This document shows positions 23,260 to 30,876 of a stretch of DNA of 64,000 nucleotides, piece after piece. The notes below the pieces were generated by a model. That model ran no database searches. It was not told the DNA's origin and saw nothing but the letters and a program-made list of their open reading frames with translations. Positions within the stretch are counted from its first letter, which is position 1. Each line of letters starts with the position of its first letter. Position numbers and translations under genes: made by a program. The DNA is from an uncultured Muribaculaceae bacterium (GTDB lineage Bacteria; Bacillota_I; Bacilli_A; RF39; UBA660), in assembly GCA_964529195.1 (NCBI GenBank), contig CAZGWM010000001.1, positions 19,294 through 83,293 on the forward strand, written 5' to 3'.

Positions 23260-24633
23260 TTATTTTTTTTCACTTGTTTTTTTATTTTCTGGAGTTTTTT
23301 CTTTTGGTTCTTCCTTTTTTATTTTTAAATCTTCTATTTTCTCTTTTGGTTTATCTTTTTTTACTTCTTCTTTTCTTGGGCCTTTTTTTATTTTTTTTAG
23401 GTTTTTTGCTTGAAGAATACTTATAATAGTTATAAGCACTAGTAGCCCGCTTACTCCTGCTCCGATAATCATCATAATGTCTAATTTATTTAAGTTATAT
23501 AAATAATCTTCTTTATTAAATACTTGAAGAGTTTTATTTACTTTATCATAACTATAAAAGTTTTCTTCATTATTATTTGTATTGATTCCATAAATTATGT
23601 AGAATTTACTGTCATCTTTTATTTTTAAGATATTCAATTCTTCATTGTTAATATTTACTTTATAAGTTTTCATCCCTTTTAAAGTTTGATTATTATCAGG
23701 TACATATATATTAAGGGATTGTGAAGTAATATATATGAATTTATTTACTACTTTACCATTTTCAAATATATAATATGATCCATTTCCTTTTGAGTTTGTT
23801 GCATATATTATAGTTAATTTTAGTTTTGAATTATATAGTCCTTTTATTTCTTCTGAGTTTATTACTACTTCAACTTCATTAAAATTACTTGGAGTTTTTT
23901 CAGGTAATTTTCTTGCCACAAAAATATCTTCATCTTTATATTTTATTTTTATAGGATCTTTTTCTGGAACTGTTATTTTCAGTAAATAAGTTTTTAAAGC
24001 ACCATTTTCTGCTTTAACCGATACTTCAACTTCATTTTCTCCTTCAATTAGATCTATTAATCCAGTTCCAGAGACTGTTGCCTTATTATGATTTACTCTA
24101 GCAGATATATTTACTGAAGTTATTCCTGGATTAGTGATGAATATATATTCTAATTTATTTTTATCAAATTCTAGTTCATACCCTTCAACCTCAAGTGAAG
24201 ATAAACTATTATCTGATGAATAAACTTTATTTACTGGTTTTGATATAGTAACAGTTGTTCCAGATGATGAAGGATTTAAATGTTGAACAGTTTTAAAGTC
24301 TGCTATTGCGGCATTATTTATTGAAATGCTGGCCACACCTTCTGCTATTGCTCTAAATGTATATGAGTATGTTTTTACTTTGTATGAGCCATCTCCAGAA
24401 TCTGCTACTCCTGTTGCTCCACTAACTAAAGTTAATTTACTCGAGTCGTATGTTAAATTATATTGCCATGATCCTAATGTATCAGTACTACTTACTCTTA
24501 CTGTTACATTAAATGTATTATTTAAATTAACATATGACTGGCTACTTGAAGCAGTTATACTTCCTGTAGCAGCATATATTTTCAGCGGAAACAGCAATAA
24601 AAATGCAATTATTAATAATATTTTATTTTTCAT
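23260..24633 (-). CDS. membrane-anchored surface protein: signal peptide, cohesin-like domain, cadherin-like beta-sandwich domain, C-terminal TM helix and Lys/Glu-rich cytoplasmic tail
   Basis: N-terminal region ...SYVNLNNTFNVTVRVSSTDTLGSWQYNLTYDSSKLTLVSG...SYKVKTYSYTFRAIAEGVASISINNAAIADF... fits the cohesin fold pattern. Residues ~140-225 fit the cadherin-like (PF12733) pattern. TM helix IMMIIGAGVSGLLVLITIISIL then a KKIKKGPRKEEVKKDKPKEK... tail. Confidence 0.55.
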   Translation of the reverse strand: MKNKILLIIAFLLLFPLKIYAATGSITASSSQSYVNLNNTFNVTVRVSSTDTLGSWQYNLTYDSSKLTLVSGATGVADSGDGSYKVKTYSYTFRAIAEGVASISINNAAIADFKTVQHLNPSSSGTTVTISKPVNKVYSSDNSLSSLEVEGYELEFDKNKLEYIFITNPGITSVNISARVNHNKATVSGTGLIDLIEGENEVEVSVKAENGALKTYLLKITVPEKDPIKIKYKDEDIFVARKLPEKTPSNFNEVEVVINSEEIKGLYNSKLKLTIIYATNSKGNGSYYIFENGKVVNKFIYITSQSLNIYVPDNNQTLKGMKTYKVNINNEELNILKIKDDSKFYIIYGINTNNNEENFYSYDKVNKTLQVFNKEDYLYNLNKLDIMMIIGAGVSGLLVLITIISILQAKNLKKIKKGPRKEEVKKDKPKEKIEDLKIKKEEPKEKTPENKKTSEKK

Positions 24634-24642
24634 TTTATTCTC

Positions 24643-26610
24643 CTATTGTGATATTTTTGATATTCCTAGTATATGTTTTTGAATTATTAATAAGTCTAGT
24701 ATATCTATTTTTCCATCTTTATTTACATCGGTAGCTTCTTTATATACACCTGTTTTTAGTGTTACATTAAGGATGTGTTTTTGAGTTACTAGTAAATCTA
24801 GTATATCTACTTTACCATCTCCATTGTTATCACCATATTTAACTATTGTATATGTTTTAGTACCATTATTAGTTATTGTTATTTTATCTCCAGTTGCAAG
24901 TGTTTTGGTGTTGTTAATTGTTACTTTAGCCGATGGAACTTCATTTTTTAATAAAGTATTTAAAGCGCTTCCTGTATCAGGGATATTTTTACCACTTATA
25001 ATACTAGATTTATTATTAACACCGATTATTGATATTATATCATCTGGTGATAAGTTTGAAGACGCTACTTTATTTACATTTACTGTATATGTTGTTGTAT
25101 TACCAGCTGCAGCAGTTACAATTATTTTTAAAGCAGTGCTCGAGCCAGTTAGATTTTGTTTACCCACTCCTGATACAGTTGCTTTTGAGTTAGTTGCTTT
25201 TGCTGTAATTGTTACATTTGATGTAGATTCAGTTACTGAGCAGTCATAATTAACAGCATTTGGTGAAAATCCCGGCATTAAAGAACATCCCGTTACGCTT
25301 AATGAACTTAATGTTGCATCTTGATTCTCAGTAGAACTTAATGAAGTAGATGCAGGCATATTTCTAAAATAAGGGATTTTAAATGTATATGGAAGTGTTA
25401 GTACATTATTATTTTTATATGAATTATATGTTATTCCACTTTCGGTTCTTGGCGCTTCTATATTTTGCATGTATTGATGCCAAAATGTTGCTGGCGGAAC
25501 AACGTCAAATTTTTGAAAATAAATAGTATCTTGCCCAGGTGTGCCTCCTGGTCCATTATTTATATAACTATTTGATAATAATTTTGATCCTTCAATAATT
25601 GATTTTTTAGGTGTATTCCAATTTCTAGAACTGTTTGCAGCATATGCTAAACCATTAAGAATAATTTGAGCAGCTCCAGTTCCAGTTGCACCTATATTAA
25701 AGAAATTGTAATATCCAACATACTGCCCATTATATCCCTCACCTAAACTAAGAGATGATCCGTTTCTACTTTGCTCAACTAATACTCTACTTACTAAATG
25801 AACTGGATTTACTCCAGATGTGACTGCTGCTTCTTTAAATATTGCAAAGTAAGTCATTCCTGATTTTAAGTCTGTTCCAGACATAAATGTTCCATTTAAA
25901 ATAGAAGTTATTTCTTGATCGTAGTTCTTATTTTTATCATATGATAACTGCTCAAACATAAATATATGACTTTCATTAAAGAAGTTTCTTGGATCCATAA
26001 AATATCCGATTGTTTGCTTGCTTGCTGCATAACAACCATTATCAAATGTATACCATACTCCATTTCCAGCATAAGCTGCATCATCAGTACTTCTTAGTGA
26101 TGTATCACTGCTGCATATTAAGTTTCTACTTACTGAAGATGCTTCTTGATTAATTACATGTGACCAGTCATATCCAGTGTCAAAAAACACAAAGTTCCAG
26201 CTTGGATATTTAGTTTTTAATACAGCTAATTTTTGTGCATAACTATCGTTAAAACCTAAGTTTTTAAGTGCAGTTACAGTAGATGATGGTACTTCTATAT
26301 TTGAATTATCCTCAGGTGCTGATACTAAAGTTACCCATGAAGAACAAAGGTAACCTTTAGTTCCCTTATAATTAATATGGTACCAATTACTATCACACCC
26401 ATTTTTTGTTCCTGCATTTGTATTTAATATTTCTACTTCTGCTTTATATGATATTACTTGTATTACAATAGAATCAGAAGTTGTCGGTTTACTTCTTAGG
26501 TTAATTCCATTGGTTGATTCTATTATTCCAGTTGTTGCTGCTTTAACATTTTTAGGTATGATTATAAATGAAAAGATTAATAATAAAGTAATTATTTTCT
26601 TCATTAACAA
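24643..26610 (-). CDS. secreted peptidoglycan hydrolase: SH3b domain, family-73 N-acetylglucosaminidase domain, cadherin-like domain, C-terminal type-I dockerin
   Basis: Signal peptide; SH3b (GINLRSKPTTSDSIVIQVISYKAEVEIL); glucosaminidase motifs (...NGQYVGYYNFFNIG...GQDTIYFQKFDV); cadherin-like (DATLSSLSVTGCSLMPGFSPNAVNYD...TYTVNVNK); two dockerin repeats (DNNGDGKVDILDLLVTQKHIL / DVNKDGKIDILDLLIIQKHILG). Confidence 0.75.
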   Translation of the reverse strand: MLMKKIITLLLIFSFIIIPKNVKAATTGIIESTNGINLRSKPTTSDSIVIQVISYKAEVEILNTNAGTKNGCDSNWYHINYKGTKGYLCSSWVTLVSAPEDNSNIEVPSSTVTALKNLGFNDSYAQKLAVLKTKYPSWNFVFFDTGYDWSHVINQEASSVSRNLICSSDTSLRSTDDAAYAGNGVWYTFDNGCYAASKQTIGYFMDPRNFFNESHIFMFEQLSYDKNKNYDQEITSILNGTFMSGTDLKSGMTYFAIFKEAAVTSGVNPVHLVSRVLVEQSRNGSSLSLGEGYNGQYVGYYNFFNIGATGTGAAQIILNGLAYAANSSRNWNTPKKSIIEGSKLLSNSYINNGPGGTPGQDTIYFQKFDVVPPATFWHQYMQNIEAPRTESGITYNSYKNNNVLTLPYTFKIPYFRNMPASTSLSSTENQDATLSSLSVTGCSLMPGFSPNAVNYDCSVTESTSNVTITAKATNSKATVSGVGKQNLTGSSTALKIIVTAAAGNTTTYTVNVNKVASSNLSPDDIISIIGVNNKSSIISGKNIPDTGSALNTLLKNEVPSAKVTINNTKTLATGDKITITNNGTKTYTIVKYGDNNGDGKVDILDLLVTQKHILNVTLKTGVYKEATDVNKDGKIDILDLLIIQKHILGISKISQ

Positions 26611-26708
26611 CCACCTCTACTATATATAATTATAACATATTTTTATTTACTATAAATTATGGAGTAAACTTATTTACGACAAATAGACAAAAAAAGAGCA
26701 ACTGCTCT

Positions 26709-27005
26709 TTATAATTTTTCGATTACAGCAATGTTTTTTTCTAAACATCTAACTAAATCATCAGGATCATATTTAGCAAATACTTCACTAAACTTATCAG
26801 GATTTGTTAAAAACAAATGTGCGTGATTTAGTAATGCTTCTTTATGATTTTTGATTCTTGTTTTTTTAAGAGTATCATAATTAACTGCTACTACTTTTGG
26901 AAACAAAGTTAATTTCTCTTTTACTTCTTCAGAAAGTTTTGTTTCTAGTTGATTTAATTCTTCTTTAGTAAATCCAAGATCTAGTAAATATAACATATTA
27001 AACAC
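26709..27005 (-). CDS. hypothetical protein (98 aa), translationally coupled to the upstream coiled-coil protein gene
   Basis: ATG 27005 overlaps the upstream stop (26998); no family recognised by eye. Confidence 0.5.
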   Translation of the reverse strand: MFNMLYLLDLGFTKEELNQLETKLSEEVKEKLTLFPKVVAVNYDTLKKTRIKNHKEALLNHAHLFLTNPDKFSEVFAKYDPDDLVRCLEKNIAVIEKL

Positions 27006-28392
27006 TCCTTACATTTTCAGCTTGTTTTGCTTTACTTAGTAAATTAGTTATATCTGCTCCATTTAAATCTGTTCCAAGTGCAAGAGCAGCTTCTTCTAAA
27101 TGTTTAAGTTTAATTGTTGGAAGTACATCAAGTACATATCCAATATTACTTGGTTTTTGATTTGAATCTAATAATTTATTTACTATACCACTAAATTCTT
27201 CATAAGATATATCTGTTAGTACATTACTTGAGGTATATATACTGTTTAAATCTATTTTATTTTGATCTAATAGATCAAATACTTTTTTAAAGTTTTCATA
27301 GTTATAATTATTTCTTAATTTATCTTGAATATCTCTTTCAAATCTATTTACATCAAGTGCATATGACCTAAAGAATTCATCAATTGAGACTCTTTCAACT
27401 GTTTTAACTCCATCTTCTTTTATATCAGCATTTAATTCTTCTTCAGAAATAAATTCAGCTCCAAATATATCTGGAATGTTAAAATCATCAAATGAATTAG
27501 AGATACTTTCAACCATTGGTTCCTCTAACTTTTCTTCTTTTATAGGTTCCTCTAACTTTTCTTCTTTTATAGGTTCTTCTAATTTTTCTTCTATGATAGG
27601 GTTATTTAAATTGAGTTTATCTAATGTTTCAAGTGTTGGTAAGTCTTCTTCAAATACTTCTGGTAATGTATCTAACTTTTCTTCAACGCTTTCTTCTAAT
27701 TTGTTTAATTCTCTTGCTGTTTTTCTTAAACTTTCTAAAAAGTCATTTGTTTCTACTTCTTTTTTTTCTTCAATTGGTTTTGTTTCAACTACTTTTAAAT
27801 CTTTATCTAGTGATGCAATTTCATCAAAAACTTCTGTTTTAGGAGTATTTAATTTCTTTTTATTTTTTGCTTCTTTTCTTATAGCTAAATTACTGTGGTT
27901 TAATCTAGCATAATCAGAAAGTCTATTTAATTCTCTAGCGTAATACTCATGTGCATTTTTTAAATTTTCTAATCTTTCTTCTTTAGTAGCTTTATCTTTT
28001 TTTAAGTTTAAAAGTAAATCTTTTATACTTCTTGCTTTTTCAGTTAATTCAGCTATTGAATTATTATGATTTGATATTTTATCTTCTTTTTCTTCTATTT
28101 TAGAGTTTATTTCTTTATCTCCAGCTTCTACTACTGCAGTTAAATTCTTTGAGCCAAATTTATCTTGTAATAATCTTAAGTCTGCTCTTAGAGAATTTAT
28201 TTCTTCTTCTAACTCGGCTATTTGTTCTTTAGATAAATCTACTTCTACTTTATATTCTCTTGCTTCTTCTACTTTTTCGTTTATTTTTAAATTTACTTTT
28301 TCAAGTGATTGTTCTAATTCTTCTTTTTCTTTTAATAATTCCTTTAATATATTAGCTAATTTTTTATTAATATCTTCTATAATGGCTTTCAT
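26998..28392 (-). CDS. coiled-coil protein with an internal acidic tandem repeat (EEKLEEPIK x3) and a globular C-terminal domain
   Basis: 464 aa; N-terminal heptad-rich Glu/Lys/Leu coiled coil; 30-bp DNA tandem repeat at 27518-27607. Confidence 0.6.
   Translation of the reverse strand: MKAIIEDINKKLANILKELLKEKEELEQSLEKVNLKINEKVEEAREYKVEVDLSKEQIAELEEEINSLRADLRLLQDKFGSKNLTAVVEAGDKEINSKIEEKEDKISNHNNSIAELTEKARSIKDLLLNLKKDKATKEERLENLKNAHEYYARELNRLSDYARLNHSNLAIRKEAKNKKKLNTPKTEVFDEIASLDKDLKVVETKPIEEKKEVETNDFLESLRKTARELNKLEESVEEKLDTLPEVFEEDLPTLETLDKLNLNNPIIEEKLEEPIKEEKLEEPIKEEKLEEPMVESISNSFDDFNIPDIFGAEFISEEELNADIKEDGVKTVERVSIDEFFRSYALDVNRFERDIQDKLRNNYNYENFKKVFDLLDQNKIDLNSIYTSSNVLTDISYEEFSGIVNKLLDSNQKPSNIGYVLDVLPTIKLKHLEEAALALGTDLNGADITNLLSKAKQAENVRSV
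27518..27607. repeat. 30-bp tandem repeat x3 (third copy degenerate) inside the coiled-coil protein gene
   Basis: GGTTCCTCTAACTTTTCTTCTTTTATA occurs at 27518 and 27548, with a degenerate copy at 27578; it encodes the EKLEEPIKE repeats on the minus strand. Confidence 0.8.
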
Positions 28393-28474: not shown

Positions 28475-28906
28475 CTATGTGGCATTTTTTCTAGATATTT
28501 TAGAATATATTTCTTTATCATTTTCTTTTGTTTCTTTTATTTTTTTATTCATTTTATCTTTAATAGTATTTGAGTAACCAGTAAATGTTTCATCTCCAAT
28601 TATAGTATAGGGAACCCCCTTTACCTCTTCATTAAAATAAGATGCTACCTTTTCCATTAAAATATAGTTTTTTTCATTATACCAAACTTCAAATGAATAA
28701 ATATTAACATCTTTTTTATTTAAAGTTTTTAAATATTCTTTTTCTTTTTCACAATTAGGGCATCCCTCTCCCCAAAATAAGTATATATTTAATTTATCAT
28801 TATTTATATTAGAAGGACTCTCTTTAATAATAATATTTTTATTATTTAAAATAATTATTAATCCAGATAATATAATTGGTATTACTAGGAGTATTTTTTT
28901 ATTCAT
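28475..28906 (-). CDS. extracytoplasmic thioredoxin-like thiol-disulfide oxidoreductase (CPNC active site)
   Basis: N-terminal signal/TM then YLFWGEGCPNCEKEKEYLK (CxxC in thioredoxin-fold context); overlaps the upstream ASST gene by 8 nt. Confidence 0.6.
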   Translation of the reverse strand: MNKKILLVIPIILSGLIIILNNKNIIIKESPSNINNDKLNIYLFWGEGCPNCEKEKEYLKTLNKKDVNIYSFEVWYNEKNYILMEKVASYFNEEVKGVPYTIIGDETFTGYSNTIKDKMNKKIKETKENDKEIYSKISRKNAT

Positions 28907-30803
28907 TAAAATTCACGACTTTTCCACTATTATATATTTTATTATTTATTTTAATATATATAGAATATTTTCCGTTTAATCCTTTTTTATTAATATATTT
29001 AGTTACATTTATTCCTTCTTCTGTTTCTTCTTCAGTAAATATATCAACGCATAGGGCAGTATATGGCTTTTTACTTACCCTTATATCATATTCTTTTAAT
29101 GTTAAGTTTTTATATAATAATACTTTAACTTTATCTTCTCTTTTAAATACTCCAGAGATAGAAATTCTGTCTCCTTCATTTGTTATTTTTATTTCTTCAT
29201 CTAAAGAATTATTACTTAATTTTAAAGTTAATTTTCTTTTGTCTATTTTTGTTTTTTCAAATGAACCAAGTGTTTTTGGAGCATTTTTTTCGTATGTATC
29301 ATTTCCATATAAATTCATCTTTTCAACTCTATAATTATTTGTATTTAATTTTATTTCAAATATTATTTCATCATTTAAAAGCTCGACAGTATCTGACACT
29401 AATTTATCAGCTCCAATTAATCCAGCTGGGGTGTTTTGTATTTGACCATCTTTATAAACTATTCCACCGGAGTGAACTATGTAATGGTTTTTATTTATAT
29501 AATCAACATCAGAAATATAAGGCGAGTAAAATGATGATCCTCTTTCTTTTCCGTATTGCCAAATTTGTTTTATTTCCATTTTATTTGTATCTATTTCATA
29601 CATCACGCCTCTAGTGTAGCTATCTTTTGCTTTTACATATTCCTCTTTTATTTTAGATTTATTATTTCCATTATCAAGTATAAAAACATATCCCTCTGGT
29701 GTGATCATAGCAGCATGCTGACTCCATTGCCACTCTAAATCACCTGTTGGTTTAAAGAAATATTTCAGGTAATCTTTACTCCAGTTTGTATTATCTCCTA
29801 TTATCCAGTTTAAATTACCTGTATCATAATCTATATTTATTACTGCATCTTGATGTCTTCCAGATAATGTTATTGAATTTGTTTTTTTATCAAACCATAC
29901 TGAGTTATTATGAAACCAATCATAATCTACCCATCCTTCACTTTTAGCATCTTCCATATTAAGTATATTTTTTAAATCTATTCTTTTTATTTCTTTTCCA
30001 GTATTTCTATCTATTTCAACTATTATATCCTCAACAGTATCACCATTAAAATCATCAGTTGAAACTAGAAGATTACCATTTTCCATTTCAAAGTAATCAT
30101 GATGATATCCACCTTTTAATGTATATTCATTATATATTTTACCTAGTAAATCCATCTCATATAAACCTGTAGTGTAGTATGGTGGATTTAGCATTCTTTC
30201 AGTACTTAGCATTAATCTACCGTTTTTTAACTTATCTATTTTCCAAACTGAATTTATATTTAAGTACCATCTAACATCACCATTTATATCATATGCTGAT
30301 GTGTAACCTTTACTTGATGGAGTAAAGAAATATAATTCATTACCTAATTTATCTTTATTTGCGTATAAGTATGTTACCTTCGCTATATTTTCAGGTAATT
30401 TATCTGTTTTAATATAAATTGTTTTTTTTACGTTATTATAACTTATAATTACTTTGTTATTTTTATCTGGATAAAGTCCATATATTGGAAGATAATGTTT
30501 TTTATTTTTTTCAAATGTATGTGTAATTGTTGTTTTATCATCTTTTCCAGTAATAGTTACTTCAGGGGCAACTTCTTCTTCTGTTTCAAATATTATAAGC
30601 GCTGTAAGTGGTGATATTTCATATGGATTTAATATTACTTTAGGATTAGTTATATTATATCCTTTTGATGTTATGTTTTTATTAATTTCTATTTGTTTTA
30701 AAACTAAATTATCTTTTAATAATATTTCTTTATTAGTATTTTTATAATTTAAATAAAATAAAGGTAGTATTATTAATATGATAATTATTATATATTTTTT
30801 CAT
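28899..30803 (-). CDS. arylsulfotransferase (ASST, PF05935-like) family beta-propeller protein, secreted or membrane-anchored
   Basis: N-terminal TM/signal; motifs resembling ASST (GGYHHDYFEMENGNLLVS, VDYDWFHNNSVWFD, ITPEGYVFILDNGNN); start at ATG 30803 after SD AAGAGGA. Confidence 0.5.
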   Translation of the reverse strand: MKKYIIIIILIILPLFYLNYKNTNKEILLKDNLVLKQIEINKNITSKGYNITNPKVILNPYEISPLTALIIFETEEEVAPEVTITGKDDKTTITHTFEKNKKHYLPIYGLYPDKNNKVIISYNNVKKTIYIKTDKLPENIAKVTYLYANKDKLGNELYFFTPSSKGYTSAYDINGDVRWYLNINSVWKIDKLKNGRLMLSTERMLNPPYYTTGLYEMDLLGKIYNEYTLKGGYHHDYFEMENGNLLVSTDDFNGDTVEDIIVEIDRNTGKEIKRIDLKNILNMEDAKSEGWVDYDWFHNNSVWFDKKTNSITLSGRHQDAVINIDYDTGNLNWIIGDNTNWSKDYLKYFFKPTGDLEWQWSQHAAMITPEGYVFILDNGNNKSKIKEEYVKAKDSYTRGVMYEIDTNKMEIKQIWQYGKERGSSFYSPYISDVDYINKNHYIVHSGGIVYKDGQIQNTPAGLIGADKLVSDTVELLNDEIIFEIKLNTNNYRVEKMNLYGNDTYEKNAPKTLGSFEKTKIDKRKLTLKLSNNSLDEEIKITNEGDRISISGVFKREDKVKVLLYKNLTLKEYDIRVSKKPYTALCVDIFTEEETEEGINVTKYINKKGLNGKYSIYIKINNKIYNSGKVVNFNE

Positions 30804-30876
30804 ATTATTCCTCTTTTCTAAGTTTAATTTAAAATAAAAAAAAAGAATAAACAATAACTTATAAGTTGAAAAAAAT

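Follow-up and report, generated by a model that had tools for sequence, protein, structure and literature searches.

In the 64-kb stretch of DNA analysed here (the window), taken from contig CAZGWM010000001.1 of an uncultured bacterium, two co-oriented open reading frames (ORFs) of the minus strand encode a predicted dockerin-cohesin pair. The upstream ORF, gene 2 (26610-24643), specifies a predicted secreted, dockerin-tagged GH73-type N-acetylglucosaminidase, and the downstream ORF, gene 1 (24633-23260), a predicted type I membrane protein of 457 aa. A preliminary description of the window had placed two overlapping genes at these positions in the order gene 1-gene 2. Both ORFs and their co-orientation were confirmed, whereas the order is reversed on the minus strand and the overlap does not exist. 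At the junction (24634-24645), the TAG stop codon of gene 2 (24645-24643) is followed by a 9-nt spacer and the ATG of gene 1 at 24633, and the ribosome-binding site AGGAG (24644-24640) straddles this stop codon 6 nt ahead of the ATG. Just 5' of gene 2 lies a promoter-like site (26629-26656, minus strand; TTTATA-16-TATAAT with an upstream TG, extended -10), itself preceded by a terminator-like hairpin (26710-26693, minus strand). Both are consensus matches only, and the former suggests that gene 2 opens its own transcription unit. On the basis of the 9-nt spacer with its ribosome-binding site and of the promoter-like site and terminator upstream, gene 2 and gene 1 constitute a two-gene operon. 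Gene 2 comprises 655 aa when counted from the first TTG; the deposited protein (P0121) has 653 aa, which suggests the ATG at 26604 as its start.

Domain architecture of the two proteins

The only hydrophobic segment detected by hydropathy analysis of gene 2 is an N-terminal signal sequence, and a secreted, soluble product is therefore predicted. The SH3 domain anticipated by the preliminary description was recovered at residues 35-93 (26332-26508, minus strand; Pfam SH3_3, E 2.1e-9, 37.8 bits) and is a probable cell-wall-binding module. It is followed by the GH73-type catalytic region (residues ~100-420, core match 240-402; 25351-26313, minus strand). A phmmer search against the Protein Data Bank (PDB) matched it to the glucosaminidases AtlE (4pi7, E 1.9e-10), Atl (6fxo, E 3.6e-9) and SagB (6u0o, E 6e-8). 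The NCBIfam SagB model matched with E 4e-13 at a score of 49, far under the model cut-off of 425, and the Pfam Glucosaminidase family PF01832 gave no match to gene 2 even at E<=1. The lack of a PF01832 match marks the GH73 domain as divergent, and annotation pipelines that rely on domain models will therefore not recognise the members of this family as enzymes. The predicted GH73 assignment is based on the matches to PDB and NCBIfam entries together with the conserved motifs.

The catalytic residue of gene 2 is Glu279, which aligns with the glutamate of the LVETG motif in AtlE. The PDB entry 4pi8 reads LVATG at this motif, suggesting that a Glu-to-Ala variant of AtlE was crystallised. Glu279 is invariant in 77/77 members of the gene 2 family, as are Asn302, Asn305 and Asn383; Tyr380 is kept in 76/77, and the motifs YNFFN and QY..N are conserved in the same 77 sequences. 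The invariant Glu279 and the conserved motifs suggest that gene 2 encodes an active enzyme. Downstream of the catalytic region are a cadherin-like beta-sandwich module (residues 434-514; 25069-25311, minus strand; Pfam PF12733, E 1.1e-8) and a spacer segment of ~75 aa (residues 515-588; 24847-25068, minus strand), which is conserved in the family alignment and gave no Pfam family match.

The C-terminal dockerin (residues 592-648; 24667-24837, minus strand) was matched by Dockerin_1 (PF00404) over all 57 model positions with 53.4 bits (E 3e-14, cut-off 22.9), and phmmer matched it to the solved dockerins 2vn5_B, 2ccl_B and 1ohz_B. It consists of two 22-residue repeats with D/N at the calcium positions 1, 3, 5, 9 and 12, followed by ILDLL..QKHIL. 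The calcium loops, DNNGDGKVDILD and DVNKDGKIDILD, are conserved in the 80 orthologues. Two EF-hand-like calcium loops, each followed by a predicted helix, characterise type I dockerins, and the two-repeat type I assignment made previously was borne out at this level. The loop motif occurs only twice in the six frames of the window, both times in gene 2. Moreover, the two repeats are symmetric and co-vary in parallel across the orthologues, as exemplified by ISISDYAKVKSHIL paired with VSIADYAKIKSHIL and by INALDLLKIQKYIL present twice. Such internal symmetry is a pattern tied to dockerins with a dual binding mode, as in PDB 2vn5, and may point to the same property in gene 2.

The gene 1 protein is composed, in this order, of a signal peptide, a cohesin domain, a cadherin-like module, a third domain termed D3, a transmembrane (TM) helix and a Lys/Glu-rich tail. 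Hydropathy analysis revealed the N-terminal signal sequence and one TM segment at ~383-412 (peak 2.62), and the 45-residue tail contains 19 Lys and 9 Glu, all in agreement with the earlier prediction. The region of helix and cytoplasmic tail spans 23263-23478 (minus strand; TM ~386-408, tail to residue 457). The positive charges after the helix fit an orientation in which the N-terminus would be outside and the C-terminus inside. An AlphaFold2 model built from a 52-sequence alignment (pLDDT 86) showed three beta domains followed by a long helix (374-416).

The N-terminal domain of 113 aa (residues 23-135; 24229-24567, minus strand) had been described as fitting the cohesin pattern. Pfam Cohesin (PF00963) matched it with 21.9 bits (E 2.2e-4), just under the cut-off of 24.1 bits, and matched 18/52 family members at E<=1e-3 (best E 4.6e-9). 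A single-sequence phmmer search of gene 1 against the PDB yielded only spurious thermonuclease matches; the family profile found cohesins at E 3e-4 to 0.03, intermixed with antibody light chains. In the model, this domain adopts a predicted nine-stranded flattened beta-sandwich that can be superposed on solved cohesins, and 13 of the top 14 structure matches of the modelled domain are cohesins. The matches include the C. perfringens GH33 cohesin (2vo8_A, 13.2), the C. perfringens NagJ cohesin (2w1n_A, 12.6), a C. acetobutylicum structure (6kgc_A, 12.0), a non-cellulosomal A. fulgidus structure (2xdh_A, 11.5) and a C. thermocellum structure (1ohz_A, 10.7). The predicted fold thus bears out the cohesin-like character of the domain.

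The next module (residues 140-222; 23968-24216, minus strand) gave a weak match to PF12733 (18.9 bits) in gene 1 itself and was matched by this model in 51/52 family members. It is 33% identical to the cadherin-like module of gene 2 (E 1e-11), as expected from the earlier claim that both proteins share this module. The membrane-proximal D3 (residues 226-385, ~160 aa; 23479-23958, minus strand) had been overlooked. It is all-beta, was modelled confidently by AlphaFold2 (pLDDT >90), and matched no Pfam family and no distinct PDB fold. Its conserved residues are Tyr360, Tyr362, Asp363 and Thr368, which form a Y-x-Y-D...T motif just before the TM helix. D3 is conserved to the same degree as the cohesin and accompanies it in every lineage examined.

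Conservation, co-divergence and wider occurrence of the gene pair

Homologues of gene 1 were detectable in 148 cases, nearly all in metagenome-assembled genomes (MAGs) of uncultured gut "Bacilli" or "Tenericutes"; a few are already annotated as "cohesin domain-containing protein". A scan of one genome per species, seeded with a 17-sequence alignment because the 52-sequence alignment was too divergent for seeding, gave 278 relatives, of which the best 80 loci were analysed. These loci stem from gut MAGs of human, chicken, rabbit, ruminant and rodent origin and include Clostridium sp. CAG:524, CAG:433 and Candidatus Onthousia. In 80/80 loci, a dockerin-bearing gene 2-like ORF is located directly upstream of the gene 1-like ORF, mostly at a distance of 6-16 nt or with a short overlap. 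HMMs built from the family detected a single cohesin and a single dockerin in every locus of the set of 80 as well as in the window. The genes that flank the pair in the window recur in only 0-23/80 loci, and the pairing is therefore far more conserved than general synteny. Even a relative with 28% identity (P0079) retains the pair and the 9-nt spacer. In the P0079 lineage (L083 and the GCA_016648615.1 locus), genes for the synthesis of wall polymers come after the pair (Glycos_transf_4, DUF6020, GT2 and one resembling O-antigen ligase), which hints at a link to envelope biogenesis. Five loci (L001, L003, L009, L020 and L026) carry the low-GC Bacilli-type operon and are yet deposited as 'uncultured Muribaculaceae' or 'Phocaeicola vulgatus'; these labels are probably binning or labelling errors.

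Co-divergence of the two proteins was analysed by the mirror-tree approach with pairwise distance matrices for eight domains in 77 paired sequences and in a dereplicated set of 52. The dockerin matrix correlated best with that of the cohesin on the other polypeptide (r 0.84 for 77 and 0.74 for 52 sequences). Its correlations with the domains of its own polypeptide in the full set were 0.78 for GH73, 0.74 for the spacer, 0.73 for SH3 and 0.60 for the cadherin-like module, and after dereplication they reached at most 0.58. The partial correlation of dockerin and cohesin given GH73 and D3 was 0.52-0.57 (partial Mantel p 0.001). This is the pattern expected of two contacting modules and provides indirect evidence that dockerin and cohesin may bind each other.

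The 70-residue dockerin was also used as query in a full HMMER search, from which multi-loop proteins were filtered out. Those top-scoring matches were proteins of 300-2500 aa (P0241-P0283 and others) with 4-17 tandem dockerin-like calcium loops, dissimilar to gene 2. Nearly all single-dockerin matches at >=49% identity were gene 2 orthologues or their fragments. The exceptions were envelope enzymes, namely a SpoIID + SH3_3 protein (P0338), a Glucosaminidase + Amidase_3 protein (P0365) and a subtilase (P0346, Peptidase_S8), the last with a dockerin that shares 54% identity with the gene 2 dockerin. The contexts of the SpoIID- and the Glucosaminidase + Amidase_3-dockerin genes were checked, and both genes are followed by a gene for a signal peptide-cohesin(-D3-TM) protein. 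The SpoIID-dockerin gene of Alkalibacter mobilis (L086) and of A. rhizosphaerae (L087) is followed at a distance of 19-24 nt by a gene whose product consists of a signal peptide, a cohesin, a Pro/Thr linker, D3 and a TM helix; the linker replaces the cadherin-like module, whereas D3 is retained. A second cohesin-D3 paralogue is encoded ~1.2 kb downstream in both genomes. At a further locus the SpoIID-dockerin gene is followed by genes for two tandem cohesin-D3 proteins. The gene after the GH73+amidase-dockerin gene begins with a signal peptide and a cohesin, and the gene before it ends in D3.

All cohesin-TM proteins encoded at the Clostridia loci were matched by a D3 HMM (E 1e-15 to 1e-41), with D3 at L086:8140-9306, L087:4001-5140 and L089:2804-5287 and cohesin-D3 paralogues at L086:10452-11600, L087:6335-7435 and L089:2795-3961. 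The Clostridia loci (Alkalibacter and a contig of 55% G+C) have two cohesin-D3 paralogues per dockerin-tagged hydrolase, in contrast to one in Bacilli. In one case, from Christensenellales, a cohesin-D3 gene lies downstream of an NlpC/P60 gene lacking a dockerin. As judged from these gene contexts, the predicted dockerin-hydrolase/cohesin unit spans Bacilli and Clostridia, and its catalytic domains appear interchangeable; this spread to other peptidoglycan hydrolases had likewise escaped the preliminary description.

The window has a G+C content of ~25% and contains genes for a DnaE-type polymerase, a PrsA-like foldase, RecX, an LtaS-like sulfatase, PolA, EzrA, Ffh, IF-2, LeuRS, GlmM and YbbR. 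It is a chromosomal segment of a Firmicute, neither phage nor plasmid, and EzrA, GlmM, YbbR and the LtaS-like sulfatase indicate that the host is walled. A prophage or endolysin origin was rejected in view of the signal peptides on both proteins and of the housekeeping surroundings (DnaE, PolA, EzrA, Ffh, IF-2, LeuRS, GlmM). Upstream of the operon (26709-28392, minus strand), a 464-aa coiled-coil protein with tandem EEKLEEPIK repeats is encoded by an ORF that overlaps a 98-aa ORF directly adjoining the operon. Neither had a real family match; homologues occupy the same position in 19-23/80 loci and are fused as one ORF in some of them. Farther upstream (28475-30854, minus strand) are genes for an arylsulfotransferase (ASST, E 5e-94) and then a thioredoxin-like protein, which were found beside the operon in 0/80 and 1/80 loci, respectively.

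A predicted membrane tether for a peptidoglycan hydrolase

We consider it likely that the two-gene operon encodes a 1:1 membrane tether that holds a peptidoglycan hydrolase near the membrane of its producer. Its signal peptide would direct the export of the gene 2 product, a soluble GH73 N-acetylglucosaminidase that has SH3_3 as a wall-binding module and ends in a calcium-binding dockerin. The gene 1 product would be exported with its N-terminus outside, be retained in the cytoplasmic membrane by the single C-terminal TM helix and present one cohesin at its distal tip, above the cadherin-like spacer and D3. The dockerin of gene 2 would plug into this cohesin, probably in either of two symmetric orientations, and the hydrolase would thereby be kept at a fixed short distance from the producer's membrane and prevented from diffusing away. 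This would probably allow the cell to cut its own glycan strands in a controlled manner, be it to separate daughter cells and turn over the wall or to trim nascent strands close to the membrane, by analogy with the membrane-bound glucosaminidase SagB of S. aureus.

The domain identities, the cohesin fold, the intact catalytic and calcium-binding residues, the operon structure, the strict adjacency and the co-evolution were all backed by the present analysis. The earlier notion of a minimal non-cellulosomal cohesin-dockerin pair gained from the adjacency in 80/80 loci, the Cohesin matches of the relatives and the mirror-tree signal; the overlap of the genes was not borne out. For the most part, the preliminary description was correct in what it observed, and its reading, which is plausible, has gained support.

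Several points weigh against the proposed tether. We infer the binding of the pair members from their adjacency in all 80 loci and from the mirror-tree signal, and mirror-tree correlations may be inflated by shared phylogeny. The cohesin also shows partial correlations with the cadherin-like module (0.48) and the spacer domain (0.36) of gene 2. The Cohesin score of gene 1 itself lies below the Pfam gathering threshold, and distant proteins with a cohesin and a cadherin-like module (P0100) have no adjoining dockerin gene. The counts of cohesins and dockerins cover the window and ~1 Mb of related neighbourhoods, and partners elsewhere are possible. Finally, action on the own wall rather than on neighbouring cells is inferred from the predicted membrane anchor.

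The first alternative is that gene 1 is not passive, and that D3, the TM helix and the charged tail couple or gate the hydrolase to membrane synthesis or division machinery in the manner of SpdC-SagB or FtsEX, with cohesin-dockerin binding as the docking step. D3 is as conserved as the cohesin and goes with it in all lineages analysed, including those in which a Pro/Thr linker takes the place of the cadherin-like module, and the P0079 pair adjoins wall-polymer synthesis genes. Moreover, SagB, a relative of the GH73 domain, requires a membrane partner for its activity (bioRxiv 10.1101/2020.05.21.109470). Since D3 is without a recognisable fold relative or family, the cytoplasmic tail is of low complexity and poorly conserved, and nothing ties gene 1 to divisome proteins, we regard this role as unlikely. 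It extends the tether explanation and does not exclude it.

A second alternative is an offensive 'lyticome', in which the cohesin protein would display the glucosaminidase for the lysis of neighbours in competition or for nutrients and not for remodelling of the own wall. Dockerin-bearing putative lysozymes in rumen metagenomes have been read in this way (PMC6487960), the concept was proposed in a review (PMC6403190), and the host, a gut bacterium with a small genome, lives in dense communities. However, the predicted TM anchor lies beneath the own wall and the stalk comprises only three small domains, which makes a reach past the wall doubtful. The pair is single-copy, lies in a housekeeping context and is kept in all 80 relatives, which is more typical of core wall physiology than of variable weaponry. 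Furthermore, the enzymes found in equivalent units elsewhere (SpoIID/LytB-type, GH73+Amidase_3) resemble housekeeping autolysins, and there is no evident immunity gene adjacent to the pair or between its two genes. An offensive function thus appears rather improbable.

It is very improbable that the two proteins do not bind each other, with the N-domain of gene 1 serving as a generic Ig-like or cohesin-like stalk, the dockerin binding another cohesin or a wall component, and adjacency reflecting co-expression, given that each of the 80 loci has one cohesin and one dockerin, that the dockerin diverges with the cohesin more closely than with its own catalytic domain, and that the pairing recurs with unrelated catalytic domains.

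In Gram-positive bacteria, it is an open problem how potentially lethal wall hydrolases are kept in the right place. Wall-binding repeats, a TM anchor of the enzyme itself and membrane partners such as SpdC or FtsEX are known solutions. The locus suggests a further one, in which the ultra-tight cohesin-dockerin plug, best known from cellulosomes, may serve as a dedicated 1:1 membrane tether of an autolysin. The arrangement has been kept throughout a large clade of uncultured gut Bacilli with small genomes, is found again in Clostridia in combination with other hydrolase domains and comes with the uncharacterised conserved domain D3. Its cultured carriers, A. mobilis and A. rhizosphaerae, open the hypothesis to direct testing, and a compact natural cohesin-dockerin pair with a membrane-display design is added for engineering. 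There is also a modest chance that the signal peptide-cohesin-D3-TM proteins represent an undescribed, widespread class of autolysin receptors or regulators in Firmicutes. Interchangeable hydrolases (GH73, SpoIID/LytB-type, GH73+amidase, perhaps subtilase) would be recruited to such proteins by a dockerin, and wall cleavage would be coupled to synthesis or division, or gated by them, through the conserved D3 and the cytoplasmic tail, as a counterpart of SpdC-SagB or FtsEX-hydrolase control and not as a mere passive tether.

Comparison with known cohesin-dockerin and hydrolase-anchoring systems

The preliminary description had called the tethering of an autolysin by cohesin and dockerin 'not a standard annotated arrangement'. 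This was overstated: an association with a GH73 enzyme has been remarked on in Ruminococcus bicirculans, and dockerin-bearing wall hydrolases as well as single-cohesin proteins with a TM helix have been reported. The arrangement is accordingly not unprecedented, and non-cellulosomal cohesin-dockerin systems are already known. In R. bicirculans, a single cohesin and a single dockerin associated with a GH73 enzyme were mentioned in a one-line genome remark (Wegmann et al., 2014, as relayed by Ze et al., 2015, PMC4611034). As in the present pair, one dockerin and one cohesin are linked to a GH73 enzyme in this organism, a non-cellulolytic gut Firmicute. The remark, in the form relayed there, does not describe conservation, co-evolution or D3, and the present pair comes from low-GC uncultured Bacilli. 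It is the only literature statement found that expresses the same idea. Literature searches on dockerins together with autolysins, GH73 or SpoIID retrieved no study of the operon, of its conservation or of D3.

Other cohesin-dockerin systems outside cellulosomes include the amylosomes of R. bromii (PMC4611034) and the toxin complexes of C. perfringens (PMC12997984). In the cohesin (X82)-dockerin complexes that the latter forms from secreted glycoside hydrolase toxins (NagJ, NanJ, NagH), the cohesins reside on catalytic enzymes and join soluble toxins for the attack on host glycans. In the present pair, by contrast, the cohesin is located on a non-catalytic membrane protein and the predicted cargo is a peptidoglycan hydrolase.

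The anchoring scaffoldins of cellulosomes, which are held by SLH domains, sortase or a TM helix, are similar in that a cell-bound cohesin captures a dockerin-bearing secreted protein, and the possible anchoring scaffoldins listed in the literature include proteins with a single cohesin and a C-terminal TM helix (PMC11557425). The present pair differs from them, as neither a multi-cohesin scaffoldin nor a dockerin-bearing plant-cell-wall carbohydrate-active enzyme was found in the window, and as it has an apparent 1:1 stoichiometry and a dedicated operon. Membership in a cellulosome was rejected, since the window and each of the 80 loci contain one cohesin and one dockerin and the sole cargo is a predicted peptidoglycan hydrolase.

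In the SagB-SpdC system of S. aureus, a GH73 glucosaminidase is likewise held at the membrane through a membrane protein and cuts the cell's own glycan strands. However, SagB itself carries a TM helix at its N-terminus, its partner SpdC is polytopic and CAAX-like, and neither cohesin nor dockerin is involved there. Assignment of the present pair to this family failed, because gene 2 has no TM helix, gene 1 is single-pass and not SpdC-like, and the NCBIfam SagB score remains far below its cut-off.

Finally, dockerin-bearing cell-wall hydrolases have been reported from rumen cellulosome producers (PMC6487960, PMC6403190). These enzymes share with gene 2 the fusion of a dockerin to a peptidoglycan-cleaving domain. 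Their dockerins are considered to integrate into large multi-enzyme cellulosomes and to serve in the attack on competitors, whereas the gene 2 dockerin has as its predicted partner a dedicated membrane anchor from its own operon.

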